Part shown: positions 25,601 through 64,000 of the stretch, one piece after another | How the letters are laid out: every line of letters begins with the position of its first letter | How positions within the stretch are numbered: position 1 is the stretch's first letter | Source: Antedon mediterranea | Lineage: Eukaryota > Animalia > Echinodermata | Assembly: GCF_964355755.1 (NCBI RefSeq) | Contig: NC_092673.1 | Location: 28,145,648-28,209,647 of the forward strand | Direction of reading: 5' to 3' | DNA length: 64,000 nt | The notes under the pieces: model-generated | What the model saw: only the letters and a program-made list of their open reading frames with translations | Database searches by the model: none | Told to the model about the DNA's origin: nothing | Made by a program: the position numbers and the translations under genes

Positions 25601-27037
25601 ACAACCCTGAAGATTAACAAATAATAAGACAAATTAATATCTATAGATCTTATAGAGTTCATTATGCTAAACTACCAACTTTTAAAAGAACTCTCCCAAA
25701 ACCAGAAATCTTCTAACAATCTTAAAAAAACAATTTGGGAAAGCCTACGGTTTTAGGAAAGTTGACTGTACTCGAAAAAAGATGCACCTACCATCTCCAC
25801 TTGCGCTACACTTCTGAGGGTCAATTATCTTTGACTTAATATCTCCAAAAACTTCTAAAGAATCTATTTCCCCCGCAGAAACATCTGGCAAAAACTTTAA
25901 AAAAGCATCAGCTCTCGGGGAAGAATGAATCTGGAGTCGACTGAAGTTTCCCATTCGCTGCGTCAATAACGGTTTAAGCGATAAAAACTCATCATTATTT
26001 CCGTCAGTGAGAGCTCTCTTCGCAACGGCGCAGCTGTGTTGCACGTCCTCAAGTGTCTGTTTCATGTAGAATTGTTGCGCTTTCAAAGCTTGTTTTTTCT
26101 CTTCACAAACTTTGTCAACTTTTACAAACAGCTGTTCCTTGTGCTTTTGTAATGCGGACATATAAGATTGCATATACAAATCGATCTCCTGCTTCACGGA
26201 TTCCTTCTTATTTTCAATCTCTGCGTCAAGTTCGTTAATCTTCTTAAGCGTACCCTGCAAAGTCAAAATATGTGGCTCGCTTTTAGAAATAAGTTTCAAA
26301 AGTAACGTCCTACTTTCATCTACAATGTCATCATTAAATTCTATCACATGATCACGATGTTCCACGATGCAGCAATCACGGCAGATTGTTTTATCGCAAG
26401 TCTCGCAAAATAAACGTTGCTCTTCTCGTAGATGTGACTGACACTTGAGGGGGCTATACAGTCCATCAACACCTTCTTTGCGAACCTCTTCCAAGCTTAT
26501 GACTTTATGAGACGCAGTTTTTCGTTGGCGATTATGAGCTTGCGAACAGAAATTGCATAAATTGACAGTACATTCCATACACCTGGAAATGGCGTCCGAT
26601 TCCTCACACAGATCACAATGAACGTTATTTTCATTTGGATTCAGAGCTTTTTGTAAGATTTCTTTTCGTATCATGAAATTTACCGGTAGTTCGTAAACAC
26701 CACGCCTCGGTAGATCGACCTCGGATTCGCACGTTGGACACATCAACGTGACGACAGTGTTGGATATACTTGACAGACTGTTCATTGAGATTGACAAATT
26801 TGGATTTCTATCGTCACTGCTGATGATGTACGGCTCAAACGAACGTATACACTCTGCGCAGAATGTATGAAGACAAGGAAGTAATCGTGGGTCATTATAC
26901 CGCTTGTGACATGATTTGCAATCTAAGTCAATTAACTCAGTCCTACTGGAAACATTGTCAGCAGCAGCCGAAGATCCATTACAATTTCCAGAACACTGGT
27001 TCTCAATTTCACCTTCAACAATCATTTGTTCAGACAT
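22667..27037 (-). CDS. TRIM45: TRIM45-like E3 ligase (RING, 2 B-boxes, coiled coil, filamin repeat, Cys/His-rich C-terminus); exons ~27037-25792, 25606-25477, 24414-24297, ~23608-23481, ~22806-22667
   Basis: RING C-x2-C...LPCLHTFC...CPTC and two B-boxes in the 442-aa ORF. Filamin exons (EDGSHKVYYTP, GSPFVV). The C-terminus FHCCTFCSS...CACGATMPGGFKGCGHGHEGHPGKPHWSCCGK is characteristic of TRIM45. Confidence 0.9.
23757..23851. repeat. 24-bp minisatellite, ~4 copies, in a TRIM45 intron
   Basis: Unit ctactacaatctttctaaatgtct in tandem. Confidence 0.9.
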
Positions 27038-40187: not shown

Positions 40188-43100
40188 TCATATTACATTT
40201 TTTTCTATTAACGGTGTACCATCCCATAGTCTGTCAAAGCCCATTTTAGTTAAATCTATGGAAACCGTGCAGCCATTTATTATAAGTTCTGTAACCGCTT
40301 GACCAACGGCCGGAGACTGTTGGATGCCATGACCGCTAAACCCTGTTGCTACCACCAAATTCGGGTAAGCTGGGTGATAACCAATAATACCATTTTGGTC
40401 AAAAGTGTTGTAATCATAATATCCCGCCCAAGCATTTTTAATCTGTGAAAAAGAATGAAGATTCCATGTTTAATTAACTTTATTTTCTGTGAAACCCTAC
40501 AAAGCATTCATACTATAGTATAGTACTAGTTGTAAACTTAAAGATGTATTGTCCCCCAAAAACATGAACATTTGAAGATTAATTTTAAATAAGACTTTGC
40601 ATAGGGGATTTTGTAGAAAAAAAAATAATGCTTGCACTTATTATATGGTTAAATTCAACCAAGATCCCATTGGCTGGCAGCAAATTTTACTATTTTTTGC
40701 TTTAAATTACATTTTTTTCGGGGAAATAGACTTTTTTTTCAATCCAATTTTTGGTCAAAGTGGATGATTTGATTGCATATTAAACAACAAAATTATTTCT
40801 TTCAGGGGGACAATACATCATTAAGCATGAATTTAGACTGTCAAATATATTTAACATTCATCAAATACAAATGAAAAGTATACTTACTTTAAGACATTCA
40901 AATGCTTTAACCCGATTGGCCAGATTTGGCCAAATCTGGTCGTTAAACCATTCATAATCAACTGACAAGTCTTCACAGCTAGGCTCCTGGTCCTGTTGTT
41001 AATATAAAAAAGACTATTAAGCATTGTGCATGTGTTAATTTTGTAAAGGCCTTTCAGGAAAACCAGAAGTTTTGGACCATCCTGAGACTTGGTTCCCACG
41101 ACGTGGGTGCAACACAAAAATGATCCATGGCGATTATTCACATTACTGAATATCACCTATGTTATATATGCAATTCATTCATTACAGTTTATACATTTAC
41201 CATACTTATTCGAATATATGCCCGGGGGAATTTACTGTTCAGGAGGGTTCTTATGGGGGGGGGGGGGCGTTTTCTCGAGGTAGGCATTCATTGGGAGGGA
41301 GGTGTTTATTTTTTTGGGTGTAAATAAATAAAGGCTCTGTGGCGTTTAATCAAAATGATGTTCTATGGGGAAGAGGGAGGGGGCGTTTATTCGGTGGTGG
41401 TGTTTATTTGAATAATACGGTATTTATCGTTAGATTATGACAGAACATTACCTCTGGAGGACTTTTTCCCGCTATATACATTCCTCCGAATCCTTCCCGT
41501 CGGAAATAAGATCCATCCGGCATTATAACAAATGGACAATCTAAAGTAGGGCCCTCTGGAGCATGGCACACATAGACATAGCGTTTTCGTGGTTCCACTG
41601 GGATCATTAAATCCAATAAACCATCTGCAGGGCCGCATCCGATGTCCGCCAACATTCCAACTTCTTTTGAGGTAGGACCAGCGGCCATGACAACATATGA
41701 ACAATTTACAACATTTGTTTCTGGACTGTTTAACATTCGAACCTACAAAAAAGTCACAGTTCAAAATAAAATGGACAGCCCATTCTTGGTACGGTATCTA
41801 TTTCCGAAGTATCATAGAAATATTTGGTAATACAACATCACATGTATCTAGTATTAGCCAAACCCTTAACCTAACATGATACAGGCAGTACATGTGATAT
41901 AAATGAGATTCTGTATTACCAAATATTCCTTTGATTCTTCGGAAATAGTATGTGGAGATACAGCACTAGGAATCGGGTGAGATGGGAAGAAGTTGTTCAC
42001 AAAAAATAGTAATATGTATTAATTACACTCACCTTGACGCCAGTGATCCTACGACCGCATCCTCCATATGCCATACTTTCATTTGGCTTCACCTCACTAT
42101 ACTGAAACCCGCTGACCTCACCGTCTACGTATTTAGCTCCAAGGGAAATAGCTTTTTTACGAAAGGCGGACAGCAATGACCACGGATCAAACCAACCTTC
42201 ATTCTCATAACCTAGAACAAAAATTATCAAATTCACTTTACATTTTACTTTCCTAAGCTCTGTCTACACTATCAAACTTTATGACAAAAAAATGTGATGG
42301 GCCTATATGGACATGATGATGTCATATCACTACCATATTTGACCATATCACACTTTTTTTGTAAAATTAGTTCAATAGTGCAGACAGGTTAATACTTTTT
42401 AGTTTTCCTTATTTTTTATACTGGGTGACCTCTCTCTCCCATTTATGATCAGTAGCTGTTAGTGACATACCATATGAGGCAAGCGCTATATCATCTGTGT
42501 TCATCCATGGGTGCCTTTCCTTAAGCATTGTTGGTGATAACAACTCAACTTTTGCTCCTAATTCCCTGAAATATACAAATAAATTTCACACAATCAATTT
42601 ATAATAATATAATACTGTACTAGCAAAAGTTCAAGAAGTATACTTCATGTATCAGACAGAAAATCTCATCAAAAGCTCTGTCTACACTATCAAGCTTTAT
42701 GCGACAAAAAAATGTGATGTGCCCATATATTTTATTTCATACTAGACAGAGCTTTAGTCCATAATACTAATACTAATTTAATTTCATTTTTTTATTATTT
42801 TGTACACAAAAGTAAGAAACTTGCTAAATATAGGATGAATAAACTAAAATTTACCGGTCATATAAACTAATAAAGTCTCATTTGAGGCTTAGGGGATGGT
42901 GTAGAAAGAGGCATGAACTTTGACACCCTTTCATGAGAAACGTAGTACAGGGAGAAAGTATCCTTTTCAGACCTCAAAATTTGGAGAGAGAAAAACGAAA
43001 TATCACAAGGTTTTATGAAACCATGTAAAACTCTAGGGTGCTATGATACTATGTCGAGAAAGGTTGAAAATGCATTATTTCACATAATAATGAATAAATT

Positions 43101-45045
43101 TATCAAAAACGTTATGGACCAATATTAGTAGGTGTTTTCTACTCTCAAATTATTAATTATACATTATAAGGGTATTTTATTTGTATATTTTATATTACCG
43201 TATATATTACTAAAAATCTTGAGAAATTGTATTTTAGAGAAAGAGCGAGAGATGACACAAATAATCATGACAGTTGATAGTCTGCCTTTGTAATTTGAAT
43301 ACTTTACTTGCTGACCTTTGTATTTTGTGATTTTCCTGCAGGATATGTGCCCCTCGTTCCGTGGCAAGAAACAAGTAGCCATGCTCATTGAACTGAACGT
43401 CTGGTGGGTCTTCATCCGCCACACACAAATTCTCTTTAATATTATGTAAGAACTCAGCACTATACATTGACATCTGTATGTTCTCTGCATTTGAAAACTG
43501 TTGACGTATGCCACCAGCTGCCAGTGTGCTTGCACACCTAGTGTACTAAAACAAATGAGTAAACTCTGTCTACACTATCAAAATGTGATGTGCCCATATA
43601 TGGACATGATGATGTCATATCACTACCGTATTTGGTTATATCACTACCATATTTGGGCACATCATTTTGTCAAACTATTTTGATATTGTAGACATTCATA
43701 CTACTGTACTAGCAAGTATACCTTCCCCAGAGTGTGATTAAAGAAATTCAAGAGTTTTGAGATTTTACCTTGACCTTTAACGACCTAACAAATGCAAGAT
43801 CGTCCAAGTTTGAAGACTAGTCTCTGAATAAAGCCGGACAGATACGCAGAGATTTAGTGAATTATAGCATTTATAAACATTTTGTAGAAAAGTTTTCTGG
43901 ATTATTAAAGATCTTTTAACTTGATTTGATGCAAAAAAAGGTTATGAGTTACTCTTGGACAAGTTTTATTAAAGTAAGTCTGACCTTTATCTCAATACAA
44001 ATTAAATTGACAAAAACTACTGTACTTGTGAAGCGGAAAGAAGCTATTGTATAAAAGAAGTCAATATTTAGAAATCAAGGCCCCTTGTGGTTAATCAATG
44101 CAGACTGTTTATTGTGCAAGACAAGGAGAGTGGTAGGTAGAGAAATTAAATACAATCTTTTGTTACCTCCGAGAAGTTAAAAGGTAGATCAGTTTTGTGC
44201 GAGTTTCTTTATTTGTTAGTTAAATTCTGTCTACACTATCAAACGTTATGTGACAACAAAAATGCGATGTGCCCACATGTTATAGGACATGATAACACAT
44301 CATTACAATATTTGGGCATATCACTACCATATTTGGGCACATCACATTTTGTTGACACATAAAGTTTAATAGTGTAGACAGCTGAGCTTTAGAAGGATTA
44401 CTCAAAAAGTTTTTGCCAGATTTTCATAAGATTTTAAAGAATGGTTTCATACCTCTCTATAATATAGTCTATAGACTTGATTAGAATATTGAACAGATGG
44501 TAAATAAAATATTAAAGATGTATTAACCCTAAAAAAACATGAAAAATGAAGGTTAAAGAAATCAGACTTTGAATAGGCCATTTTGCATTATTCACTTCTT
44601 TTTCGATCCAATTTTTTTATCAAACTATTATTATGTGACATTAATAAATGGCATATTAAAAAAAAACTTGAAAACAATAGATTTAATCGTTACAAAAAAA
44701 AAGTTCCTGCAATAAATTTAAATATTTAAATAAAAATACACAAACCTGTGAATCTTTCTCAACAACCAGAACAGACATGTTATAATTGTGTTTCTTTAAA
44801 AAGTATGCTATGCTAGAACCCATCACCGCACCACCGATAACCACAACGTCCACATCAGGGGGAGGTCGATTGTTATGCGGCGAGTCAGTGTTCAGACTCC
44901 TCGTCCTTGTTAGGCCTAGGCCTAGACAATTACGGTGCCTAGAACCGATAAAAGAACCGGATACATGTTTACGCAAACTTATGCTTATCGTTTGTTCTAC
45001 TGCAGCATTACCAAATAGTCTTGGAAATAGCCGAATAGTGGCCAT
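40188..45045 (-). CDS. FOXRED1: FAD-dependent oxidoreductase domain-containing protein 1 (complex I assembly factor); 7 exons
   Basis: Exons ~45045-44746, 43545-43316, 42565-42471, 42211-42033, 41741-41452, 40992-40888 and 40443-40188. Arg-rich mitochondrial-type presequence, Rossmann VVVIGGAVMGSS, GGIRQQFS, NEGWFDPWSLL, PVEPRKRYVY, AWAGYYDYNTFDQNG and GFSGHGIQQSPAVG. Confidence 0.93.
40542..40820. mobile_element. TTAA-flanked MITE (Kolobok-like) in a FOXRED1 intron
   Basis: TTAA|agatgtattgtccccc ... gggggacaatacatca|TTAA. Confidence 0.7.
41198..41421. mobile_element. MITE with G-rich internal repeats
   Basis: Imperfect TIR taccatacttattcgaata / tatttgaataatacggta with repeated ggggcgtttatt. 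Confidence 0.5.
41799..41947. mobile_element. Foldback MITE
   Basis: Arms tatttccgaag...aatatttggtaataca / tgtattaccaaatatt...cttcggaaata, with central aacccttaacctaac. Confidence 0.6.
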
Positions 45046-45824: not shown

Positions 45825-48800
45825 ATGAACAGCAAAAGTTGGGCCGATCAAGTCGAAGAGGAACGACGTAAGTAGACCGAGCAGACTGGCCTTCTGCCGT
45901 TGGCCAACTGTGTTTTGTTGGTTGGCTTGTGCTTATACTTCGCTTTGTTTGAACCTAATTCTAATGACGTTACTTTATTTACCTTTTTATTTGATATTTA
46001 ATAACCTAGGCCTATAGGCTATGATGTGGACTAATTAATCATATTTATAAAAAAAAATCTGTTTATTAGACGTTCCTCAAAATGAAGAAATAATTAAAGG
46101 AAACACAAAGAAATTGATTGAATACAGACGGGAAGAAAATGGAAAACTACAAAAGGTAAATTTATTTTATTTTTTTAATTGTTCAATACCTCAAACACAA
46201 CCTAAAAGAAATGATTTTAAAAGATTATTTCTTCTCTTGTATCTTGCATTATCTCTTGCATTCTCTTTAAGGAACACAGGTTTTATCCAAACAACTTTTT
46301 TTACTTGATTTACTTGATGTTGAGACTTATAAAGCCGAAGCTTGTGTGTCCCTCGACGTGTTCCTATATATTATCTTGTCTACTATAGGGGGAAAACTTG
46401 CAGAAAGAAGTAGACAAGTGTTTTTCAAGCCTTGACTTGAACTGGTTGATTGAGTCAGATTCTATGACGGTTGACGGTAATTTGTTCCAGACATTGCATA
46501 GGTTTTGAGTAAAGAACTTTTGTCTAATTCTATTCTCTTGTATTTATTTTATTTTAGGTTATACGAACCTTCAATATAGAACAAAGAAAAGCTTCTAAAA
46601 CGGTTGCAACAAGAAAGGTAACTATTTAATCTATCTTCAATTGACAATACGCAAGACAAATGAAGTAACGAGTGAGTGGCTAAAGAGTGGAGACCGTGAA
46701 ACCATAATTATGTAGCCATAATATCGGCTAGGGTTCAAGGCTCACTCGCTCCATGGTTCTACCGGATAATCTTCTCGGATAATGACTATAAACCATAGGT
46801 CAAGTGTTCACATCTAGCTCATGTGCACTTTAAAGAACCTACTACATCTTTCGAGTAGGGGGTTACCCCGGTGTACTAGAACACACACAGCCACTCTTCA
46901 TAAGTGGGCGCTGGGAGAACAGTCTGTGACTGAAAAATCCACTCAGTATAAAGAATAAATAATAATACAATAAAAATATACACATAAAGTCTAAATACAA
47001 AATGAGTAGTATTATATGAATATGATATGATTTCTTGCAGGCTTGGCCTAAGTTTGGTTCAGCTAGCCAAGATGGTTCAGGACCTAACCCAGTTACAACT
47101 ACAATCTCTGACGATATCTTTATGCAGTTCATCACGGCCAAAGATGTAAGCCAGATAATTTTTGAAAATCCAATCAACAACATTTATTTAGAAAGACAGA
47201 TATCATCAAGATAAAGCTGCTTTCACATCACTGTCCAATCAGCAGTGAGCATGAATAACTACGCATGATAACGCATAACCGAATTTGTGGTCGATGTGAA
47301 AGCAGCTTAAATTGAAGAAAAAATACAGTAAATGAATGCCAATTGAATGGGATGGATTGACAAATATTTTGTGTTTATTTATAAAATTTATTCTTGTTTT
47401 CAGGAGTTGAATGCAACCAATGAGAATGATGACCCAATCAAGCGTATCGCCGCTGCGCAAAAGATGGTAATGTGCCGTGTCTGTAAAGGAGACCATTGGA
47501 CAACAAAATGTCCATATAAGGATACATTGGAACCACTGCAGAAGGAGCTAGCAGCAGCTGACAAGCCACCTGAGGAGAACGGAAGTAGGTTGGTCATCGG
47601 GGTGGGGTAGCCTAGGACCTAAACCATCTTTTTGTATTGCAATTTGGTTTGGATCTGCCTATGTTGCTAGTAGTGCATAACTTTATTATTAAATGATACT
47701 ATGTTGGTGGTTACATATTAAAAGATGTGTTAACAAAATGTATTTAACGTTTCTTTCAAGTTAATGTTTAACTAATGTTTATAATCTTATTTATTTGAAG
47801 CTGCCGAGCCTGGGTCTACTGGAGCCTCCACTGGCAAGTACATTCCACCTGGCAAGAGGAAGGGAGCAGAAGCAGCCAGAGGGGGTGATCGTGATAACAA
47901 AAGAGGTAAGATAAATGTTTCTAATCTAATGTATTAATTAAAACAGAATGCATGTTGTCCTTTGAAAATTGCTACATCCAGGGGGTCCAGGTGTAGGTAT
48001 ATCCAGGGGTTTAGGTCCATCCAGAGTTGTAGCTTTATCCAGGGTGTAAGTTTGTATCTTGGTGTGTAGAGCATTTTAGGCTTGTGTTAGGCAAGTTACA
48101 GTTTTGACCAAATAAAAAGGGTTAAATGAATACGGTTATTTTGTTAGATGATGGAGCAACTATTAGAGTTACCAATTTATCAGAAGACACCAGGGAGCCT
48201 GACCTTCAAGAATTATTCCGACCTTTTGGAGCAATTCAGAGGATATACCTCGCAATGGACAAAAATACAGGCATGTCAAAGGTAAATAAAAAAATCTAAA
48301 GCTCTGTCTACACTATCAAACGAATGTGATGTGACCATATATGGACATGTTGATGTCATATCACTACCATATTTGGGCTTATTTTTTTTTTTCAAACTAG
48401 TTTGATGGTGTAGACAGAGCTTTATACACTGTTGATATCAAATATTAAAACACTGAAAATAGTAAAACCCACATACAGTAATAATACAGATATCGTTTAT
48501 GGATACATTGTTAATATTTCAGGGATTTGCTTTTATTAATTTTCATCACCGAGAGGACGCCGCTCGAGCTATTGCTGGAGTCTCTGGTTATGGTTACGAT
48601 CATTTAATTCTGAAAGTTGAATGGGCAAAGTAAGTAGAAATCTTTGTAATACAGTATTTTTAGTTTAGTGGAGTTGAGGGTTGGTGGTTATGATGCTCGG
48701 CTACCAAACCAAGGGTCCTGGGTCCAAGTCCTGTCATGATTTTTTCTAATGACAATTTACAACTCCACTCCCAAAGACTAGTAATAAGACTTTGTTTATG

Positions 48801-50773: not shown

Positions 50774-53700
50774 GAGCCATTGTCTGTAAGAATCAAAGAA
50801 ATATCAAAAAGAGTGGCAGACTCAAAAAAATGGATTTCTTTCAAATTTTGCACATGGCTATATATGTGTTGAGAGAAATCAAATATGAAGTATTTTTTAT
50901 TTCACACGTATATTTCCATGGCAACGGCCAAATTTGTGTTTTTGACAAATTTTGTCCTTTTTTAAGGTTTTTTAAAATGGATATTGGTACTACTTTGATG
51001 AACGATATTTTTGTTTTGTTCATTTAATTATAAAAAATAATTAGTGTATGCATAATAACAATGCATTGTGCACCTGTTTCAAATTTTTTTATTTTTTTTT
51101 ATTTCATACTTTGGGAGATACCATTTATTTAAAAAGGGGTGTTTTTCACTTTTTTTTAATTGTTCAATGCAACTAAACTTTACTTCACCATAACGCCCAA
51201 AGTGGTGTATTTTTTTAGCTGATTTATTACAAATAGGTAGTTCCAATGTTTAATAATTGATTTCTAAAATAAAATACTGGGATAAATTTAAAATCTGCAA
51301 GCAGTGTTGCGAGAAACATAGGCATTTTTATATTAAAAAAAACATGGTATATTAGTAAAAACATTTTATTTTCTTTGATTATTTGATTTGAAACTCATTG
51401 GTCAGAAAAATTCTTAATGTTTTATATAGTTCTAGTTGTGTTGTGAGAAATTATTATAGATTCTGTAATTCCCAGTTTTAATGTCATTTTATAGGTTATA
51501 TCCTCTGGAAATTTGAATAAATTATCAGATCGTTGTGAATTTTAATCTTTGCAACAGATTACTCCTCTCTTATTTTGAAGCTCCTCTTTCATTTGTTTAC
51601 TTGTTTTATTTGCTAACCTAAGCAGATCCCACATGCCCATCAACCACCATTTTCGACTACCATCCCTCCCCCCCCCCCCCCCCCCCCCACCCCGACTATA
51701 ACCACAAAAAGATAAACTGCAACACTTTGGTCGATCATCCACTATAGAGTGTCAAATGCATGCATTCAAGCACCACCCACACTGCCGCTACTATCGCCCC
51801 AATGAATAGACAGATTCAAACTCCTCCATCCCACCCCCTCCCCCTTTCTCCAAGCCCCACCCACCCCAAGTTAACAATTGCAATGCAAAAGATAGAACAT
51901 AAAGTTAAGTTTTTAGACCCTCGCCTTCAACCTCCTAACTATTTAAAAGTCCTGGATCCACCACTTTTCCCTCCCCAAAATAGAACCAATCAAAAGTCAA
52001 TGATATACTCAGGTATGTTAATGCTACATAACAAATATAGAAGCCCTGATTTGAAATTTCATTTCATTTAAGGTCAGCATGTAAAATATCACACTTTATT
52101 ATTAAATATTGGTTTTAAATTCTATATTTTTTTAACGGTGTGTTTGGATTCAGTATTAATTATTAATTAATAATTATCTGATAATTATTTAATTTCCCTT
52201 AGTTATGCATAGCAACAGTTACTATGGTAACTAAAATTGAGATATTCTTTAGATTTTGCATATTTATCTTATACAAATTTAATTTTAATTTGTAGATTAT
52301 TAGCAGGCAATGCCTTATTTGCATTTTTAAATTACCGTTTCACAAGGTCATATTCGTAAGCACTTTCTTCTGTGATTATTTTTATTCATGAAAACGCCAT
52401 ATTTTATTTACAGCGGCCACCTCCCTTAACGGACGCACTTTGAAAAGCCTGTTTGTTCTTCCTATCTAATTAGTGCATTTGGTGCTTACCGTAAGCAGCT
52501 GCGGGCACCTTTTTATACAAAAAATGAGATTTTTAGTAAGCGGCCAATCGAAAAAAATGTGATACTTATTGCATGGACCTATGAATTAGAGGTGCATGTT
52601 TATTATATTTCTTTATATATTAGCTTTATTTTGAAGAGGTTTTAAAAACATTACTGTGAAGAGATGAGAAAACTACACTGATTTTGACCGACCATTTTTC
52701 ATATGATAAAAGTTTTTAAAATTTGTCTGAAAATGCTAAAAAATACTAAACCACCTGATTATAAATAATAATAGGCCTACAATTATAAGCGGCCACTTTT
52801 CCAGGTCCCGAGGGTGGCCACTTACGGGAGGTTCTTGAACTGTATTTAAACAAGAATATTTCTTACAAAAAACGCTGCTTGCTTATTGTTATTGCTAAGG
52901 TCAAGTCTGGGGTCACTTCATCAAGCCTAGATACTTCAGGTATCCTATTACAAACAAAAACTTCAATGGACTGTTTTGATAATAATTCAATGATTATCTG
53001 ACAGTGAATTATAGTAATATCATGGGACTCATAAATACCAGAAATGCTTTATGATTTGTCATTAGACTCTTTTCTCAGCCGTTTTTTGGATTCAACAGGT
53101 GGTACCTATAAATTATAGTCGAGTTTCCATTTTAACAAAAATGTCAAAGTGTAGTACTATACTGCTGCTTGATTTCATCTAATGAATGAGTCATCTCGTG
53201 TGACGTAGCGGGTTAGAGCAGCAATTATCCTTAGTTATGCATAGAAACAGGTTCTAAGATAACATAAATAATACATTTTGACATAACTTGACCCAACAAA
53301 TAACCCTTTCACAAGGTCAGACATTTTCTGGGATTCAGTAGATAAGTAAATTTGGGAAAAGGTAGTAAAGCTATGTAATCAAATATTTGTAGTCATGAAA
53401 CCCCATATTAAAAATATTGTAATTAGTTAGTATAGAAACAGTTGCTACAATCAATACACTATAGGTAAAATGTTGATGTCATTTGACCTCAATATGTAAT
53501 TTTTTTTTTCATGAAAACTCCATATTTTATTTTTTTTTACATTTATTCATATTTCTTTCTGAGATTATTAGGATTCAGTATTTAAAGTAAATTTGGCAAA
53601 AAGTAGAAATGTAAAACTATGTAGAAAAAATGTTTTGTATTTATGAAAAACCCCTTTTCGCATAGAAACAGTTGCTATGGTAAAATGTTGACCTAAAATG

Positions 53701-54798
53701 AATGAATTTACAAGGTCAAGTTTGTCATTAATGGAATGCAGTAGAAGTAAAATTGAGAAAAATTACAAATGCAATCAATTCTTTGTATTTATAAAAACGC
53801 CATTTTTTACATTTTTTTAAAAATTACTTTCCTTAGTTACACATAGAAATGGTTGCTAAGGTAACACATTAGGTAAAATATGAAAATTGTTGAGAATTGT
53901 TATGAACTATCTTGTAAATGTTGATCAAACATTAATAGTTGTAGTAAAGTGGGGACCTGTCCTGTTTTGCATTCTGACCCCTTTTGACCTTAAATGACCT
54001 ATTTCAAGGTCAGATTTTTTGGGAGGTCTTTCTGTATCTCTTTACACAAAATAGATTTAAAAATTTATAAAAACCATTGACGCAATTATTTCCAAGTTTA
54101 ACATTATTTTCCATCAACTAAATATTTCAATGCAAAATACTGTTTTTCTGGCAATTAATTGAAATAAACCTGGCAACACATTCTCCTATTTTATCTAAAC
54201 TATTCGTATGACTCTAGTAGCATTATGACAAGCCACATATACATTTTATTATTGGATTAGCCATATTTAAATTGTGTTTCATGTGTTTTGTTTGTTGATA
54301 TTTTATTATATTTTTTGTATTTTTCGTATTTTCCTGGCAACACAAAACCTATGTACGAAATTTACCCCAGTGTTTTTTCCGTGATTATTGTTGACAAACC
54401 TATTGACTATCAAATTAAAAAACCTCATTGATTTAAAAACACCCCTTTTTAAAATAATGGTATCAACCAAACTCCATTTTGTATTTTTTTTTTTTTTACA
54501 TTAAATGGAACTCAATACATGTTGTTTACACTGCTACAAACAAAAACTGTATACTGTAAGTATTTTTGGTTAAAATAAGTATACAAGTTTGTACTTTTTC
54601 ACTATAGAAAATCTGTGAAAAATGGCAAAAACATCAAAATTTGGATAATTGACCGTTGTCATGGCAACGGAGGCTAAAAATTCAAATGAATGATGTAGAT
54701 ATGCTTTTTAGTGAAATGTCTATTCATGGTAAAAATTTGAGAGAAATCCATTTTTTTACATCTGCCACCAAATCTTTTATTTTTACAGACAATGGCTC
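50774..54798. mobile_element. ~4-kb non-autonomous Kolobok-like element with long imperfect TIRs
   Basis: TTAA|gagccattgtctgtaa ... ttacagacaatggctc|TTAA. Subterminal similarity continues (gtggcaga...aaatggatttct / agaaatccattt...tctgccac). No transposase ORF. Confidence 0.8.
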
Positions 54799-56037
54799 TT
54801 AACTGGATAATCGTATGCACCAAGAATTCTTGGTGTCAAACCACGTGACTTGTGCGTGTTTCCCCAGACGGAGTATCCAAACTCAAGTAATACACGTATG
54901 AAACGCCATTATGTGCAAAAATATTTATATTTTTACTAATATTAAGACAAAACTCCGTCTGGAGCCCAGACTACTAATAATACAGTAGTTATTAAATTCT
55001 ATATTAAGCATTATGTTTTTGTACACACTAAAGCTCAGTCTTGACAAAAAAGTGATGTGCCCAAATGTTTCCCCCTATAATGTTGGATAGCGTAGACAGA
55101 GCTTTACAAATTGTTATGTAACACAGTGTAAAGGCTAATTTACAGACAAGCGGAAACCATTTACACAGAGCGTGTAATTTGTCTACAGTGTGCTACATAC
55201 ACATGCTGTACAGCTTTTATACATACATTGGTCAGTTAGTCCTATCTCATGGAAAAGGGTTTCTGCAAACATTTTGAGAATGTTTGCCACGTAACGTCGA
55301 CTGATCACGTTTGAAAACAAACTTCCCGTGTGTTTTGTATTTGTTGTCGATCGAACAAGGCTGACTCAATTTTTCAACTCGTGAAAAATTCTCAAATCAC
55401 TAGGAATGGAAGAATTATATAGATCTAGCAATACAGTACTGCAATTCTCGCTTGAACTCCTTGTGGTTGACCAGATAAAAGTGACACTTCTAAACAAGAG
55501 CAACACAAAAATATTACAAACTACAATCAAAATACAGTCTCTTTTTTACATTTTTTATTTCAAAATTGACAAATTCAACAGTGGCGCCACGTGAAGGCTT
55601 CAACATGGCCCCGGGGCTGGGAGTGACAAAAAGGCATTGCCTAAGAGTGCTTGTCGGCTGTTTTATTTCAATGCGTCAGGAATAGCATGGAAAAAGGGAA
55701 TAAACAATGCAAATGGAATGCTGGTGCTTGTATCTTGAACGTGGGGTGGGTGGCGCCAACATTATGTAGGCCTCTATATGTCACATTGGTGCAGGTTTAT
55801 TTATGCATTAGGCTTGCAGTATTATTCTACTACATTACAAGCTATCATATGTGTTTTCATATTTATACAAGGAAGGTTCTTGTTTTCATATTTATTTGAA
55901 TATACAACACTGCGGATAATATATCTGGAGTAGCCATCCCCACAACACAAACAGCAGCTTTCTACGAGTCTGTAAAATAAAATAAAAATATTAACTTCTC
56001 GTTATTTTATGGTTTTATATATAGTAGTAGTATTCTA

Positions 56038-56106
56038 AGACATCAGAACTAAGCGTTCTCTTCAACAAATTTCAGCGAGAGAGTTAAATGTTCTCATCAA
56101 ATGTCT
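56038..56106 (-). ncRNA. SNORD81: Box C/D snoRNA, SNORD81-like
   Basis: C box TTGATGA; D' guide TTTAACTCTCTCG-CTGA (complementary to 28S GAGAGAGUU); D box CTGA; terminal stem agacat/atgtct. It sits in the last intron, like U81 in GAS5. Confidence 0.75.
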
Positions 56107-56351
56107 TTCTGCAACAGAACAAGCATTTCGGATATAACAATTTGATCTACACTAAATTTACTAATTAATTAAACCACTGTTAAAATAGAATAAAAGATAT
56201 AGAAAATACTTGCCACCACAATTTCTTTTTTTTTAAGTCCTGGAAATAAACATGGTTTTTAAGCTCTGGAAAGAAAATGGATAAGATTATTTAATAATAT
56301 ATTTTATCGATCTACGTTATCAATCAAATCTGGTCTGCTTTAAGAGTTGAT

Positions 56352-56424
56352 TGACCTCAGTGAACGGAATGTTGCTATCATCGAATTACTCTTGATGGCA
56401 GAATTAGTTTTGCATCATTGGTCA
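56352..56424 (-). ncRNA. SNORD47: Box C/D snoRNA, SNORD47-like
   Basis: tgacc-AATGATG...ATTCTGCCA...CCGTTCA-CTGA-ggtca. It shares ACCAATGATG, ATTCTGCCA and CCGTTC with recalled U47; targets are 28S UGGCAGAAU / GAACGG. Confidence 0.75.
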
Positions 56425-56616
56425 AAGGGCAAACGCATCAATGCAAGTTATTACCTTAAACAATGCAGGTGAACAGCCAACAGTATCGTACACCTATCTG
56501 AAAAAAATCCAAATACAATATTACTGAATTGTTTTTATTTACATCACAAACCATACAATGAGCTAAAAGGATAAGTTATTCTCAATCCTAATAAAGAAAT
56601 CTATTTGACTTGTGTC

Positions 56617-56684
56617 TGCATCAGTCCACTACTTAAAATCTTCATTTATAATTCAGTGAGATTCCTCACATAGTCATCATTTGA
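56617..56684 (-). ncRNA. Box C/D snoRNA with SNORD79-like D' guide and SNORD75-like D guide
   Basis: ATGATGA...GGAATCTCA-CTGA...ATGAAGA...AAGTAGTGGA-CTGA. Guides are complementary to 28S GAGAUUCC and CCACUACU. Confidence 0.8.
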
Positions 56685-57540
56685 AGACACAAATCATTAT
56701 CAACACATAAATTAAATGGCAACTCCAGGTTAAAAAAGTTATAAACATTGGCAACAAGGATAATAACCCTGGTTTTTTTTTATTGCTAAAGTAAGCCCCT
56801 TTTTAAAAAGAAGTGCTGCTACAGAACTTCTTTCAAAATGTTGGTGCAAAGGTTACTAACTGTGGAAATAAATTATAAGCTGATTGTAAGCTGATTTAGC
56901 TTTGGATGAAGGGTTCAACATGGCCCCGGGGCTGGGAGGCATAGGGCATTGCCAAAGAGTGCTTGTTGGAATAAAACAGGACTGAATTGCATCAAAATTG
57001 AAATCACGGTGGTCGAAATGATACATTGATTTCGAACGATGGATTAATGATTATAGAAAATGACTATGCTGAAGGCTGTTCATGTGATCCCATACAAGAT
57101 TGATGTTGTAAAAGATGGACTGCTCTTTCAGCAATATAATAAAGTAACTATGACTCATGCATTCTGGAATCAGCTGGCCAGATGTAAACAAGAAAAAGGC
57201 AGAGTGAATGGCAGAGTATGAAATGAAAGAATGAGGCAGTTAATACCGGACAAGTTTGTACGTCAGCTGACAGAAAAGCTGTCTATTGCTGGTCAGATCG
57301 GAGCGGGACTGTTCTCAGTGTCGTTCCGGTGCAATCGAGAGCTTTTCTATCGTACCAATAAATGCTTGTTCATCTGAAACAAAAAAAGAATGCTTGGTAC
57401 AGATTGTGTTGAAATGTTTCAGATACACGTGTCTACACTATCAAACCAGTTTTGACATGCCCAAATATGGTAGTGATATGCCCAAATATGGTAGTGATAT
57501 GACATCATCGTGTCCATATATGGGCACATCACATAGTGAT

Positions 57541-57611
57541 TCACCTCAGGTTGCAAGATACATGTAATCATTCCTTTCATCTGGATCACTCAGATTGTTC
57601 ATCATTGGTGA
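57541..57611 (-). ncRNA. Box C/D snoRNA with 5.8S-complementary guide (SNORD71 paralogue-like)
   Basis: tcacc stem, ATGATGA, guide CTGAGTGATCCA (complementary to 5.8S UGGAUCACUCGG), D' ATGA, D CTGA, ggtga stem. Confidence 0.75.
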
Positions 57612-57894
57612 GTTTACAAGAAACTACATTGACCTATTACCTTAATGGAGATAAGCATGTATACTAACCTGGCTCAAAGATGGTGGTTACACCGTGCCAA
57701 CCAATAACATCACAAATCTGTAAAACATGTGGATGTTTTGTCAATATCAATTAATTATGTAAATTTGGTACTACTGGAAATATTATCAATACAAAAGGAA
57801 ACCGAACAAGCTAGCTAAATGCAGATTACTTCTACCAACTTACATTTTGTAAGCATAGATTTACATAGACAGGAACAAAAGAAAAACAACTTTT

Positions 57895-57966
57895 CATCTC
57901 AGATTCAGAAGAGAAATCATAAGATATCATTTAGTGGATCACTCTGATACAAAATCATCATCGATG
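57895..57966 (-). ncRNA. SNORD71: Box C/D snoRNA, SNORD71-like (5.8S Um14 guide)
   Basis: catc stem, ATGATGA, guide GAGTGATCCACTAA-ATGA, D box CTGA. The fifth nt upstream of D' pairs with U14 of 5.8S GGUGGAUCACUC. Confidence 0.7.
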
Positions 57967-58238
57967 CAATTAACATAACTGATTAAAGTTAGTTTACTTA
58001 CATGGTAACAATTAGTTTCTAAACCAACATGTAGATATATTCAGTATCTAGTCAATCTGAAAAAATAATTTTGTTAATTATACAGGTTATTAATATTGTA
58101 TTGGCCTAAAGCTCTGTCTAGACTATCAAACCAGTTTGAAAAAAAAGTGCGATGTGCCCAAATAGGGTAATGATATGCCCAAATATGGGAGCTGGTGATA
58201 TGACATTATCATGTCCATACATGGGCACAACAGCAAGT

Positions 58239-58310
58239 ACCTGCTCAGACTAAGTAAAGATGGTCACATATAAAATCCCTAGCAGCGATTCTTGAGTCAT
58301 CATAACAGGT
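58239..58310 (-). ncRNA. Box C/D snoRNA, target unassigned
   Basis: acctg...ATGATGA...CTGA...caggt: canonical C and D boxes and a 5-bp terminal stem in an intron of the host. Confidence 0.7.
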
Positions 58311-58537
58311 ATATTCTATAGGCAATTGTAGAATGAACATTTCATTGTTTAAAGGCCTATTGTTTCACCACTAGGAATACTTTATCTTAGGCGTGGAAAT
58401 CTTAAATCAATATTTAAAACGTACCTTTATGGATAGCTCAGTCGTACCAATTTCCCATTGTTCTGTAGAGAAATGAAAAATCCTTCATTTTCTTTGTTTA
58501 AATTGTTAAAAAATCTATTTTTTTTAATGGTTTGATT

Positions 58538-58608
58538 TGCCTCCGAGATCTTGGTGGTAGGGTACTATCACACAACAGTCAAAAGTAGCAATGTTTTCTT
58601 CCTCGGCA
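58538..58608 (-). ncRNA. SNORD76: SNORD76/SNORD24-like C/D snoRNA, copy 1 (variant boxes)
   Basis: Guides ATTGCTACT and CTACCACCAAGATCT are complementary to 28S AGAUCUUGGUGGUAGUAGCAA. Boxes AGGAAGA / CGGA; stem tgcc/ggca. Confidence 0.7.
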
Positions 58609-58640
58609 TATCTTTGTAAAAATGATCACAACACACCTTT

Positions 58641-58806
58641 AAGGCCAAGTTACACAGACGAGCAGCGTACCTTGCCCCACAGAGAATGTGCATCTAACCC
58701 GAGCATAAACCGCCTATCCAGTCTGCGTTGTGTGTAAATGATTATAAGGAATAACAGATTCTATTTTAGTATTACGGTTAACGCTTATCTGTGTAAATTG
58801 GCCTTT
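58641..58806. mobile_element. MITE in a snoRNA-host intron
   Basis: TIR aaggccaagttacacaga / tctgtgtaaattggcctt. Confidence 0.65.
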
Positions 58807-58993
58807 GTATGATAAAGGTAATCAGTGCTTAACTAGGACATTGTGATAACATAGTTTGATTCGTTATTCTAGAATGTGCTTTACCTTATATGGTATATAT
58901 TGGACACCAGCCGTTTCTGCTAAAATAAGAAATAATACAGATTAATAAAATATGAAAAGAACGTTTTTCTATGGATCAGCTGAATACAGATTT

Positions 58994-59071
58994 GCCACAT
59001 CAGGTCTACTACTATTGGTTGTTATAATCATTGTAAATCGTTTGTCCCTATCTAGTGTCATCATTTATGGC
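58994..59071 (-). ncRNA. SNORD74: Box C/D snoRNA, SNORD74-like
   Basis: ATGATGA, guide TAGATAGGGACA (complementary to 28S UGUCCCUAUCUA), D CTGA, stem gcca/tggc. Confidence 0.75.
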
Positions 59072-59477
59072 AAAATCTAATGATCTTTAAAGAAATTTCT
59101 GTAACTATCCTGCTGTAGAAGCAGTGTGAAACAGCATCTCTTTCAACAATCAACATATTTTGGAAGGAAAAGGGTCCTATTGAAACGAGATTATTTACTT
59201 ACCAAATTGTGGCAGTATCCAAATTTGCACTTGGTGAAACTATCCCCCGTCGGACACCATCTCGATGTTTCTAGAATAATAATTTTCATATTCAGGAAAT
59301 AATTTCGCCAGTGTAGCATAGCAAAAAGATATACAAAACAAACTTATTGCTACACATTTCTAAAATTGTGTAGAAAAAAATACAATACAAAATTATGTTT
59401 CTCAACTCAAAAATCAGTTTGATTAGCAATATTGATAAACAAAATTTTTCCATGATATGCTATTGATAAAATGAATT

Positions 59478-59554
59478 TGCATCAGATCGCCCTAGTTGAA
59501 GTCGTGGGTCAGTCACTGTCCATCAGACAATTTAGTCTTCAATCATCACTTGCA
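59478..59554 (-). ncRNA. Box C/D snoRNA copy 1 (18S CGCCCUAGUU guide; weak SNORD78-like element)
   Basis: tgca stem, GTGATGA, AAATTGTCTGA, AACTAGGGCG-AT-CTGA. Identical to 61173-61249. Confidence 0.75.
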
Positions 59555-60265
59555 AATTATAATATTAATTTATTGCATCCTTACCCATTATCAAAAGACA
59601 ATCTTGAGAAAGCAGACTTGTTGCCACGAAGCAGTGCCACCAAAAATGTATGCAAAATTCCGCCATCAGATACAACCAGCAAGTTGCGTTTAGGTTCATA
59701 ATTTTTCCTCAAACTTCACGCAATGACAGACAGCAATTTTCATTTCACTATGAAAAAATTTCCAAAAACAAATTGAATCAAAAAATAGTCAGCAATACTT
59801 ACACAGATACATATAATCAAACATATATAATTTTCAGTTGCATCAGTCCTATCGATCCAAAGTTAGTTTAATCATGTTACTCATGACTTTCTGATGTCAT
59901 CATTTGCAACAATATAATCTTTAAAAATAAATTAAAATAATAATTAAAATAAATTATTCTTACCACTTGGTGCGATTGCAATGTCCGTCTTACTCCTTAG
60001 TGAGACTTCCTGAAATTTATATAAAACCGAAACAATTCAACTATGTCATTCAACAGGAACAAAATGCTTACAAAAATACAGAACATAGTTTATAGGCATA
60101 TATATTCATTAGAAGGGGAGAAATAGGCTGTGCATATAATCAACAAATCTAGTTCATCCCAACTACATGCTATTTATTTCATGGGAATAGCTAACTGCAA
60201 GAAATTTGTGAGTAACTAATCAAATACATCTTTTTGTTAGATTAATTACAAAATGAAGGAAATAA

Positions 60266-60405
60266 AATTGTGTCGAACCGGGTGCCTGAAAAGCAGCGGA
60301 AATCTGCTATCAGCGAATATGGAAAGACTAGGGTTTAATGTCCGAGACTTTAAGCACCGGTCGTTTCATGTACGTTCGTATCAACGACAGTGACTCTAGA
60401 ATCGG
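60266..60405 (-). ncRNA. SNORA3: Box H/ACA snoRNA, SNORA3/SNORA45 (snR11)-like, copy 1
   Basis: Two hairpins, H box ACATTA, terminal ACA-NNN. The 5' pocket (CTAGAGTC / GCTTAA) pairs with 28S UUGAGC-UU-GACUCUAG; the 3' pocket (TATTC / CACC) pairs with 28S GGUG-UA-GAAUA. Confidence 0.75.
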
Positions 60406-60612
60406 TAAAGTTTTAAGTGTATGTCAATGTATTTAACTTACTTATTTTAAGTGCATGAATTGTTGCTGTGCATGTTCCAACACATTTAATGTAGGCATCA
60501 TCTAATAATGAAACGGTGCATTTTAACAAAAAGTTTATGAGAAACCGACAATAAATCTTTTAAATGAAGATTATGTACGTTCAAAACATTCAATCCAGAT
60601 ATATTTAGTACA

Positions 60613-60752
60613 AATTGTGTCGAACCGGGTGCCTGAAAAGCAGCGGATATCTGCCATCAGCGAATATGGAAAGACTGAGGTTTATTGTCCGAGACTTTAA
60701 GCACCGGTCGTTTCATGTACGTATGTATCAACGACAGTGACTCTAGAATCGG
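60613..60752 (-). ncRNA. SNORA3: Box H/ACA snoRNA, SNORA3-like, copy 2
   Basis: Near-identical to 60266-60405; H box ACAATA; pockets unchanged. Confidence 0.75.
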
Positions 60753-60920
60753 GACACAACATATATACCAGAAAAAACACAAAAATATCCATTTTACTTA
60801 CATACTTCCTTCATAGAACATCCATTCTGCAATTTAGTAAACCTACAAAAATTTAGATTTCAAAAGCTTAATTTTTATTTTTAAATGACATTTTTACTAA
60901 ATACATTTTATTTATTGATT

Positions 60921-60991
60921 TGCCTCCGAGATCTTGGTGGTAGGGTACTATCATACGACAGTCAAAAGTAGCAATGTTTTCTTCCTCGACA
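60921..60991 (-). ncRNA. SNORD76: SNORD76/SNORD24-like C/D snoRNA, copy 2
   Basis: Near-identical to 58538-58608, with the same guides and variant boxes. Confidence 0.7.
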
Positions 60992-61172
60992 AATCTTTGT
61001 AAAAATTAAAAATTGTCAAAAAAGTAAAAGCTTGCATACAAAACTAGAACATTTACCTCATTTCAATGGCCATATCATGCTACAACATCTCAAGTCCTAC
61101 AAAATAAAAAAAATAATTATAAACACAATGACAAATTTAAAATGTAAAGCAACTATCAACTTTCAATTTTTT

Positions 61173-61249
61173 TGCATCAGATCGCCCTAGTTGAAGTCGT
61201 GGGTCAGTCACTGTCCATCAGACAATTTAGTCTTCAATCATCACTTGCA
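61173..61249 (-). ncRNA. Box C/D snoRNA copy 2 (identical to 59478-59554)
   Basis: 77-nt identity confined to the snoRNA; GTGATGA/CTGA boxes and tgca stem. Confidence 0.75.
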
Positions 61250-62169
61250 AAAAATTAAACTTGAGTGGCACGCCTAATCGGTGATAGAAGCTATTGGAAT
61301 CTTTTGCCACTCCTTGGCGCAATCTAGCTATTTTGTCTTGTTTTGTATTAATGTGTTTTGGCAAAATAAATGAAATGATAAACAAAATATAACTTACTTT
61401 TCTTCTCAATAATATCTTGCCAAGTATCATATTTAGTGCCTAAAAAATGAAATAAAATAATTAACAAGAAATATTTCTTACAAAAAACGCCGCGTAACTT
61501 TTTGACTGGACAGTTGTTGTAAGAACAGTCTTCATTAATCTAATATAATAGGTCGGCCAATCAAAACGCAAGTGAACAATTGGGACTTTACTTGTGATTT
61601 ATGTCATTGGCCTGTCAGCACAGTCGTTTCTTTCTACTGTAGAATTAAACGCACAAATTTGTATTGGGAATAATGTATGTGGTTATTACTATCGCATTTA
61701 GGTATTGATAATAATAATAATATGGCTTTTGAATATATAATTACTGTCTGTAGAATAACATTTATACATTTTCGGTTCGCGATGAAAAGTTATATGAATG
61801 GATTTGTAATAGGTATTTATAATAATAGTATATGGGTTGTATTATTGCTAAGCTATCACCAAATCGCGTTATAACATTATTTCTCAGGGTTTTTTGCACC
61901 ATTGATCAATACCAAACGCGTATCGGTATTATAGTTTTTAATGAATCATTACATTAATAAAAATACCCAATTAAATCAATCGCGTCAGTCCAATTCCGAC
62001 TTATGTTTCGATCACATAGTTCTGTGTCTACACTGTCCCAACTAGTTTAACAAAAAAAGTGTGATGTGCCCAAATATGGTAGTGATATGCCCGATTATCG
62101 TAGTGATATGACATCATATTTAGTTTGATAGTATAGACAGAGCTTAAGGATTATATTTAAAAAATGTTT

Positions 62170-63265
62170 TCTTACATTTTGAACGGAAGTATTTATTTGT
62201 TTATAAGCCCAATTTTCCAGTCTTAATTTTACATTTTTAAAAAAAGTATTTATTTGTTTATAAGCCCAATTTTCCAGTCTTAATTTTACATTTTGAAAAA
62301 AAAAAGGATTTTATTTGTTGATAAGCCCAATTGTGCAGTTTTATTTTACATTTTAAACGAAAGTATTTATTTGTTGATAAGCCGAATTTTCCAGTTTAAT
62401 AATAATGACCCCTTCCACAGTGCTTATACCATATACATTTTACATGATATTGACCGTGGGTTCTTTACGCCTCTGATGCATTTGTTTTTATTGTACCTTT
62501 TTAATAAATTATTATATGTTTAGGCCTAATCAAACCCAATTTAATGAAACGGTCAGATTCCGATTTCAATTGAACGAAAGTAGTACTGTATTTATTATTC
62601 ATTGATAAGCCAAGGGTCCCATGGCGTTAGCCGATATCTTGAGCATTTGACTCTTGTGTCAACCTGTAACACAAATCATTCTTCAAAATCTAAAGAAAGA
62701 ACCTCACACGTCTTTTTTGTGAGTGATACACTATGGATATGCCCACGGAAATAATATGTGGACATTGCAAACAATCATAGGCCTACAGTAACAAACATAA
62801 CATGGCTAATAAGCATAACATTCAGACTTGTTTGTTTTCTAGTGGATTTTTATTTACTTTAGCATGTAGAATAAAACTAGTAACAGTGGCTATATTAATA
62901 ATTATACTGATTATCCTTGAGATGTTATCGCGTCTAATAATAAAATATTTTGTTGCTGATAAGCCCAATTTTTCAGCCTTGATTTTACATTTTGAACGAA
63001 AGTATTTATTTGTTGATAAGCCCAATTTTGCAGTCTTAATAATGACCCTTCCACAGTGCATTTTACATGATATTGACCGAGGGTTTTTACGCCTCTATAG
63101 CCACTGATCAATACCATAATAATGTACTTTTTTAAATGAATATTGAAATGTTTCAACATACCCAATTAAAAAAAAAACGGTCCGTTTTCGAGTTCAATCT
63201 TTTGATTAGAGAGGTTGGAGTTTCATTTTGAACGAAAGTATTTATTTGATTGATAAGCCAAATTT
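62170..63265. repeat. Degenerate ~60-bp tandem/dispersed repeat with a duplicated ~140-bp block
   Basis: tttgaacgaaagtatttatttgttgataagcccaatttt repeated. aataatgaccc..ccacagtgc..ttttacatgatattgaccg occurs at ~62400 and ~63040. Confidence 0.75.
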
Positions 63266-63572
63266 CTAGTCCTAATGATTTGAGATTCAACGGGTTTTGC
63301 TTTCAATTGTATAATAATATAATGATATATATATATATATATATATATAAATATAATATTAAGTATAATTATGAATTCACCAACACTTTCAGGCCCGGGG
63401 CCGAGTTTGTGTAGACCAGACTTCCATGCACAGCCACATGTTAAGGAATATGAATCTCTTTATGATTTTAATATGGTTCGAAATGATATTACACAACAAC
63501 GATTAGACAGCAACTGTGCAAGAGTCCAACTAATAAAATCGGAATGATCAATTAATTGAACATTTACAGCAT

Positions 63573-63936
63573 AAGGCCCATACACTAGGACGATAACGAT
63601 CAACGATAAATAGACAAATGTGCATTTTTAATACATAAACCAAAAGAAATATAAACAATTCCTTTGATGAAAATTATATTTTCACACGTCCAATCAAATG
63701 ACGTCATGATTAGTAAGACCAATAATATCGTGACAATACAGCGATTATATTGTTTTTATTTATCATGACGTCATTTGATTGGAATTTGAAAAACATTATT
63801 TTTATCAAAGACAGCATAAATGATTATCCTATAGGTCTAGAACGAAAACCTTTCTAATTTCTTTTGGTTTATGTAAAAAAAATGCATGCTATATATTTAT
63901 CGTCCGTCGTTATCGTCATAGTGTAATTGGGCCTTT
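63573..63936. mobile_element. Foldback MITE
   Basis: TIR aaggcccatacactaggacgataacga / tcgttatcgtcatagtgtaattgggcctt. Internal inverted ccaatcaaatgacgtcatgat / atcatgacgtcatttgattgg. A fragment of the family is at ~29058-29090. Confidence 0.75.
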
Positions 63937-64000
63937 ATACAAAAAAAATAAATTGATTACGAAGTTACATGTCATTTTTACCTATCACCAAAAAACTAAC

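Follow-up and report, generated by a model that had tools for sequence, protein, structure and literature searches.

The vertebrate gene GAS5 hosts, in this order, the small nucleolar RNAs (snoRNAs) U74, U75, U76, U77, U44, U78, U79, U80, U47 and U81. We analysed a 64-kb stretch of DNA from the feather star Antedon mediterranea (the window, to which all coordinates refer), in which the minus strand of 55970-61400 carries 12 box C/D and 2 H/ACA snoRNA candidates. This locus is very probably a non-coding multi-snoRNA host gene of the GAS5/UHG class, and it is a probable, as yet unproven, orthologue of GAS5. The GAS5 gene (SNHG2) of jawed vertebrates, cluster 26 in chicken, has short exons and one C/D RNA per intron; chicken U74, U75, U76, U44 and U78 lie in introns 1, 2, 3, 5 and 6, and U79, U80, U47 and U81 in introns 8, 9, 10 and 11 (PMC2653536). 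Conservation of GAS5 covers the gnathostomes at the least; its homologues are recognised by their snoRNAs, and the payload has been altered by duplication and deletion (PMC4408788). Drosophila Uhg1-8 are invertebrate non-coding hosts with up to 16 introns and one snoRNA in each, and flies also own guides directed at the sites of U74 and U79 (PMC4430873). Term searches of PMC13736004 and PMC11405852 gave nothing on invertebrates, and PMC6458620 terms a Drosophila small Cajal body-specific RNA 'GAS5-origined', citing a 2009 paper but without visible support. Our literature search found no description of a GAS5 in an echinoderm or another invertebrate; most subscription papers lay outside the search, so absence from print is not established.

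The candidate units span 56036-61251 (Table 1). A strict scan, defined by box C, box D and a terminal stem of at least 4 bp, returned eight units on the minus strand and none on the plus strand of 55600-61636, and two on the minus strand and none on the plus strand of bases 1-55599. The same scan of 500 dinucleotide shuffles gave a mean of 0.13 and a maximum of 2, compared with the eight observed. The remaining four C/D candidates, two with variant boxes and two with an offset stem, were based on Rfam alignments. When Rfam was searched in E-value mode (E up to 5), snoRNA families accounted for 25 of the 28 matches in 52000-64000, and 23 of these 25 fell within 56032-61244 of the minus strand, where they met 12 of the 14 candidates. 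With E up to 1, they accounted for none of the 44 matches in 1-52000. The earlier note on this DNA had counted at least 13 snoRNAs, which the 14 candidates bear out, though they represent 11 distinct sequences because three pairs are duplicated. Identity reached 68 of 68 letters between c1 and c6, 62 of 64 between c2 and c8, and 131 of 138 between h3 and h4, whereas the flanks 10-40 nucleotides (nt) away shared only 8-13 of 30 letters. Likeness that does not extend beyond the RNA suggests either selection or duplication of the unit as such.

We also considered that the units might in part be dead copies or chance boxes in AT-rich introns and the exon chain over-read. Several results lean that way: Rfam at gathering scores gave no match in all 64,000 bases, so that every score is below threshold; c2 and c8 have variant C and D boxes; and the two H/ACA candidates fold no better than shuffles (z -1.4 and -1.1). 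However, the shuffle control, the fixed register of the guides relative to their boxes, the conserved cores amid diverged flanks and the spliced contig described below make this explanation extremely unlikely. The earlier note had proposed an Rfam search as a check and would have taken a lack of hits to SNORD47, SNORD74, SNORD76, SNORD79 and SNORD81 as refuting its reading; snoRNA families did appear below threshold, but none at gathering scores, and SNORD74 and SNORD76 were not named. Three further C/D-like matches elsewhere in the window were rejected, as they lie in or against coding sequence, and a 14-letter 28S match at 57143-57156, without boxes and with an E of 3.9, was set aside as chance. 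The segment 60040-60180 and the predicted intron 58884-58723 folded no better than shuffles.

Table 1. Features of the host gene, its candidate snoRNA units and the neighbouring genes (window coordinates)
Feature	Position	Strand	Remarks
Predicted promoter and first exon	61482-61620	minus	motif scan
Predicted exons 1-4	61439-61398, 61096-61057, 60842-60802, 60501-60442	minus	
Predicted exons 5-8	60009-59964, 59747-59585, 59270-59203, 58919-58885	minus	
Predicted exons 9-12	58722-58671, 58462-58425, 58056-58002, 57717-57669	minus	
Predicted exons 13-16	57373-57356, 56497-56455, 56265-56214, 55969-end	minus	
Poly(A) signals	55896, 55801, 55667	minus	
c1, C/D	61171-61251	minus	identical to c6; predicted D guide to 18S; weak U78-type element
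c2, C/D	60921-60991	minus	dual guide, with D' of U76 type and D of U24 type; AGGAAGA and CGGA as variant boxes
h3, H/ACA, SNORA3/ACA3-like	60612-60752	minus	near-copy of h4; not itself matched in Rfam
h4, H/ACA, SNORA3/ACA3-like	60265-60405	minus	first pocket fits 28S in 3 of 3 proxy rRNAs
c5, C/D, non-GAS5 type	59837-59910	minus	D guide 11 bp with 28S in 3 of 3 proxies
c6, C/D	59476-59556	minus	identical to c1, flanks unrelated
c7, C/D, U74-type	58996-59070	minus	D' guide 12 bp to U74 site
c8, C/D	58538-58608	minus	second U76/U24 dual guide
c9, C/D, non-GAS5 type	58238-58311	minus	canonical boxes, 7-bp stem
c10, C/D	57892-57968	minus	element pairs with 5' end of 5.8S
c11, C/D	57539-57612	minus	5.8S element as in c10; further 5.8S match ahead of box D
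c12, C/D	56614-56688	minus	dual guide, U79-type D' and U75-type D
c13, C/D, U47-type	56352-56424	minus	internal motifs and terminal stem type as SNORD47, chicken GGgCD56
c14, C/D, U81-type	56036-56108	minus	last predicted intron; SNORD81 31.7 bits vs 50, E 0.0086
TRIM45-like open reading frame	25748-27037		100% identical over 97% of its length to an Antedon mediterranea protein; nearest other species Anneissia japonica, 71% identity
Vps52_C domain (Pfam)	37302-37595		VPS52, ~17 kb from host gene
FAD oxidoreductase (Pfam)	40191-45018		
eIF3g (Pfam)	47347-48630	plus	closest coding gene downstream of snoRNA host

The exon chain was drawn from a splice-site scan and reading by eye. The predicted chain runs from 61439 to 55600 on the minus strand and comprises 16 exons, of 18-163 nt apart from the last, separated by 14 GT-AG introns and one GC-AG intron. 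Exactly one candidate unit lies in 14 of these 15 introns, in agreement with the earlier note, which had described introns almost all holding one C/D or H/ACA RNA; the intron at 58884-58723 is empty. The C/D units end 73-211 nt ahead of the acceptor. Read contigs from four of five listed runs (X1-X4, X1 being an RNA run by our guess) were compared with 54800-59800. One X1 contig of 372 letters aligned through its letters 106-269 alone, on 59585-59748, and this piece is bounded by the predicted AG acceptor and GT donor of exon 59747-59585. Its flanks of about 105 and 103 letters depart from the genomic introns, whereas X2, X3 and X4 contigs continue through the introns flanking the same exon. 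Thus, one exon is spliced at both ends in the contig; it is the only predicted exon seen directly there, and the rest of the chain is predicted. This partly answers the call in the earlier note for a spliced transcript and, together with the enrichment, agrees with its reading of a non-coding polycistronic snoRNA host. The five predicted exons around 59747-59585 total 372 letters (106 before it and 103 after). This sum fits the predicted chain without proving it: relaxed splice sites can yield 80 of 131 lengths on the upstream side and 72 of 131 on the downstream side (about 55-60%), and the acceptor at 59271 scores low and was picked after the contig was known. X1 lacked cover in the bins 55301-55467, 57806-57972 and 58975-59141 and had a depth of 259.6 on the last exon compared with 41-62 beside it; neither was used as evidence.

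The joined chain holds 12-23 stops per frame. Its longest open reading frame (ORF) with an ATG has 101 codons and starts at 59699, and a host that encodes this small protein, or that is a decayed protein-coding gene, would explain the ORF length, which was equalled in only 1.1% of 1000 shuffles. This length is a point against a non-coding host. On the other side, 14 ATGs lie upstream, the stop falls about 220 nt before the last junction, exon phases are mixed and the frame depends on predicted junctions. The first 38 residues, which lie in a single exon, had no match to a Pfam family and one match, to a tandem-repeat sequence, among 1.84 billion proteins (the other 63 were not searched). A coding host is therefore very unlikely, and we retain the reading of a probably non-coding host gene.

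Upstream of the chain, opposed CCAAT/NF-Y boxes lie at 61612 and 61563, a TATA-like element at 61550 and a donor at 61481. A short pyrimidine run near 61525 follows about 27 nt behind the TATA-like element. The CCAAT boxes and the TATA-like element suggest that transcription would start near 61523, not above 61636. The 5' boundary of 61636 and the start upstream of it proposed in the earlier note are thus unsupported, the promoter-like motifs being downstream of that position. The intron after the predicted first donor would be just 42 nt, and a 9-10 bp inverted repeat at 61474-61528 has one arm in the predicted start region and its pairing partner at the first predicted 5' splice site.

Guides were tested on proxy rRNAs. 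A 15-letter guide led to 108 metagenome loci, of which four were scanned and three had full 18S, 5.8S and 28S; one proxy, L035, looks animal-like. Vertebrate sites and the GAS5 order for comparison were taken from chicken (PMC2653536). For the U74, U75, U76, U79 and U81 sites, the best minus-strand match in the region sits in the D+5 register, in which the modified base is opposite the fifth letter before the D or D' box. These register matches amount to 12 bp in c7 (U74), 9 bp at D of c12 (U75), 8 bp in c2 and c8 (U76), 9 bp at D' of c12 (U79) and 11 bp in c14 (U81). Matches of 8-12 bp also arise by chance elsewhere in the window; the evidential weight is in the register with boxes inside stemmed units, rather than in match length. 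c12 matched SNORD79 at 33.9 bits against 47 (E 0.0033). The U47 assignment of c13 was made by Rfam and the chicken sequence, c13 and chicken U47 having AUUCUGCCA and UUCCGUUC in common. At position 56076, an unpaired base before the D' box of c14, X1 and X4 carry a variant that gives the chicken letter.

The earlier note had recognised guides resembling 74, 75, 76, 79, 47 and 81, and the 3' order 79-47-81. Both hold, with two corrections: the U75-type and U79-type guides are on one RNA, c12, and the RNAs read as U76 score best as SNORD24. In addition to their U76-type guide, c2 and c8 hold a 15-bp guide to the U24 site, as does SNORD24 (RF00069), and c8 matched SNORD24 at 38.5 bits (gathering score 41, E 0.00013). 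Their D' guide, its UUGA box and the target A are those of chicken U76, unlike chicken U24, and chicken U76 retains a remnant of the U24 motif (PMC2653536). Vertebrate U24 resides in RPL7A and has a D' target two bases off that of c2 and c8. Unlike SNORD24 or U76, the feather star has both guides on one RNA, in two copies. In each copy, box C reads AGGAAGA and box D reads CGGA, which change the U.U of the k-turn to A.G; an X1 contig has a canonical CUGA at 58544, as an allele or a third copy elsewhere.

Five of the 11 distinct RNAs (c5, c9, c10, c11 and the SNORA3-like pair) are of non-GAS5 types. The 28S site of c5 is not among the sites in the chicken table. c9 has a 10-11 bp match to 28S ahead of a degenerate D' box and no snoRNA match in Rfam, and the predicted 5.8S site of c10 is nucleotide U14 under one choice of D'. 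The H/ACA pair resembles SNORA3/ACA3 (RF00334) in its hairpin-hinge-hairpin-ACA layout and first pocket, but scored 20.7 bits against 51, and the host of SNORA3 in chicken and human is RPL27A. c1 and c6 match the U78 site over 10 letters, but the in-register box, GGAC, is poor; their D guide pairs over 10 bp with the L035 18S and is the same guide as that of Rfam snoU43. Each unit is predicted to guide methylation or pseudouridylation of rRNA.

Next, we compared content and order with GAS5. Six of the ten GAS5 types are represented by guide and register, with U78 weak and all below Rfam gathering scores. GAS5 sites make up six of the eight guides that map to chicken sites, for which the hypergeometric P is 3e-5, 1e-5 and 3e-6 at 73, 86 and 110 sites, respectively; 86 is the count of PMC2653536, and 73 and 110 are bounds of our analysis. 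The order U74-U76-U79-U47-U81 is collinear with vertebrate GAS5, as in 1.4% of orderings, and the terminal run 79-47-81, in which U47 and U81 occupy the final two introns as they do in GAS5, is expected in 0.3-0.8%. These results suggest that the locus is likely a spliced non-coding carrier gene that shares a common ancestral gene with vertebrate GAS5.

Nevertheless, a number of points weigh against orthology. The targets were tested on proxies instead of the rRNA of Antedon itself, and at the U47 site none of the three proxies has the chicken letters; c13 itself scored lower with SNORD47 (24.9 bits) than with SNORD115 (26.6 bits). The H/ACA pair was left out of P, as were four guides that have no chicken site. 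The U79, U74 and U47 targets fall in a stretch of about 60 nt on 28S, and U74 and U79 guides share one RNA in Rfam snoR44_J54, indicating that these are not independent draws. The true odds are therefore weaker than the P values. Counting the weak U78-type copies, which are out of order, raises the 1.4% of orderings to 8%, and treating U75 as a separate item raises it to 17%. No guide for U44 or U77/U80 was detected in the region, nor one with a D-like box in the window, and a strict TCT or terminal oligopyrimidine (TOP) motif was not found in the motif scan of the 5' region, so that the TOP start of GAS5 is not evident here. The locus thus departs from the full C/D-only GAS5 set in lacking these guides and in holding 2 H/ACA candidates and four other C/D types. 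The 14 units exceed the ten of GAS5, as the earlier note had claimed in calling the payload larger, but three arose by local duplication and some are H/ACA or foreign to GAS5; unit duplication is also known in vertebrate GAS5.

Alternatively, a real non-coding snoRNA host may have arisen separately within the crinoid or echinoderm lineage by snoRNA movement and duplication, like the Drosophila Uhg genes, its overlap with GAS5 reflecting ancient guides with neighbouring targets and chance. The share of non-GAS5 types, including an ACA3-like RNA with a different vertebrate host, and the recent copying between introns agree with such an assembly. SnoRNAs also switch hosts, and the host of Trichoplax U76 is not conserved in human (PMC2655684). 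The fly guides are divided, C2645a for the U74 site being listed in Uhg3 and A2634c for the U79 site in Uhg7, and no GAS5-like order was seen among the Uhg hosts in the available part of that study (PMC4430873). However, independent assembly would have to account for six GAS5 sites, among which those of U76, U75 and U81 are far apart on 28S, and for a terminal run identical to that of GAS5. We regard independent assembly as unlikely, though as a serious alternative, and shared ancestry with GAS5 as the better account.

The lack of micro-synteny favours independent assembly. Human and mouse GAS5 lie between DARS2 and ZBTB37, at 1q25 in human (PMC6789762), whereas the downstream neighbour here is eIF3g, not DARS2; upstream of the host gene the window covers only about 2.4 kb. 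At a larger scale, VPS52 is a gene of the human extended major histocompatibility complex (MHC), and 6p21.3, 9q33-34, 1q21-25/1p11-32 and 19p13 are paralogous (PMC1309616). This macro-synteny, through VPS52 and the MHC paralogon that includes 1q21-25 with GAS5, mildly favours orthology. In human, EIF3G is at 19p13, TRIM45 at 1p13 and RPL7A, the U24 host, at 9q34. The FAD oxidoreductase, which we take to be FOXRED1, would be at 11q24 in human, outside the paralogous segments. Taken together, the orthology proposed in the earlier note is probable but unproven: content and, less firmly, order favour it, and U44, U77/U80, micro-synteny and a 5' TOP start were not found.

Other observations were made within the gene. 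At 57270-57350, a 38-letter piece (57296-57333) is common to a high-copy GC-rich sequence, and X1 and X2 contigs depart from the window at both of its ends with matching loose ends. The piece lies within a hairpin (z -2.9) whose terminal stem measures 9 bp, is followed on the minus strand by CUGA, and had no clear match among 107 rRNA loci. It may be antisense to a variable part of 28S, which the 107 proxy loci did not confirm, and so could be a 15th RNA or else a piece of rDNA that was captured. High-copy repeats resembling miniature inverted-repeat transposable elements occur in the snoRNA introns, on the side between RNA and acceptor (57439-57534, 58107-58232, 62048-62117 and 59309-59475), and a repeat fragment is present twice, at 56907-56969 in the long intron and at 55592-55657 at the end of the last exon. 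Upstream of the gene lie a tandem repeat of about 57 nt (62130-62400 and 62928-63100) and a long inverted repeat (63668-63803). At the other end of the window, exons of an EGF-containing, probably membrane-bound protein lie on the plus strand at 5014-9739, and numerous spaced hairpin repeats at 12849-20964 gave spurious matches to microRNA families.

By analogy with GAS5 and UHG, and from established knowledge of such hosts, the gene would be transcribed by RNA polymerase II, and each intron would be spliced out, debranched and trimmed to a protein-protected snoRNA. The spliced exon RNA would be a by-product that nonsense-mediated decay probably clears. After the two lineages separated, the feather-star gene may have duplicated three units and gained or kept five non-GAS5 RNAs, and vertebrates may have split ancestral dual guides into U24 and U76 and into U79 and U75. 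We lean, by a small degree, towards a fuller account. GAS5 would date back at least to the last ancestor that echinoderms share with chordates, and an ordered snoRNA cassette would have been kept for more than half a billion years in the linkage group of the MHC paralogon, with no exon similarity. The feather star would keep the ancestral dual guides U24 with U76 and U79 with U75, and a U47 with an in-register second guide; the vertebrate split would have put U24 and U76 on paralogous segments after genome duplication. The U24/U76 copies would work with an A.G k-turn.

The architecture itself is well known; the new features are the ordered cassette of GAS5 type outside chordates, the predicted dual guides and the k-turn variant. 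Neither ORF-based annotation nor Rfam at its standard cut-offs reveals the host gene. Deep tracing of long non-coding RNAs (lncRNAs) beyond vertebrates is rare, and snoRNAs are thought to switch hosts freely over such times. If true, the orthology would date a well-studied human lncRNA to early deuterostomes, and snoRNA content and order would offer a cheap test for deep lncRNA orthology. It would also argue that snoRNA delivery is the oldest job of GAS5, as opposed to the exon functions described in mammals.

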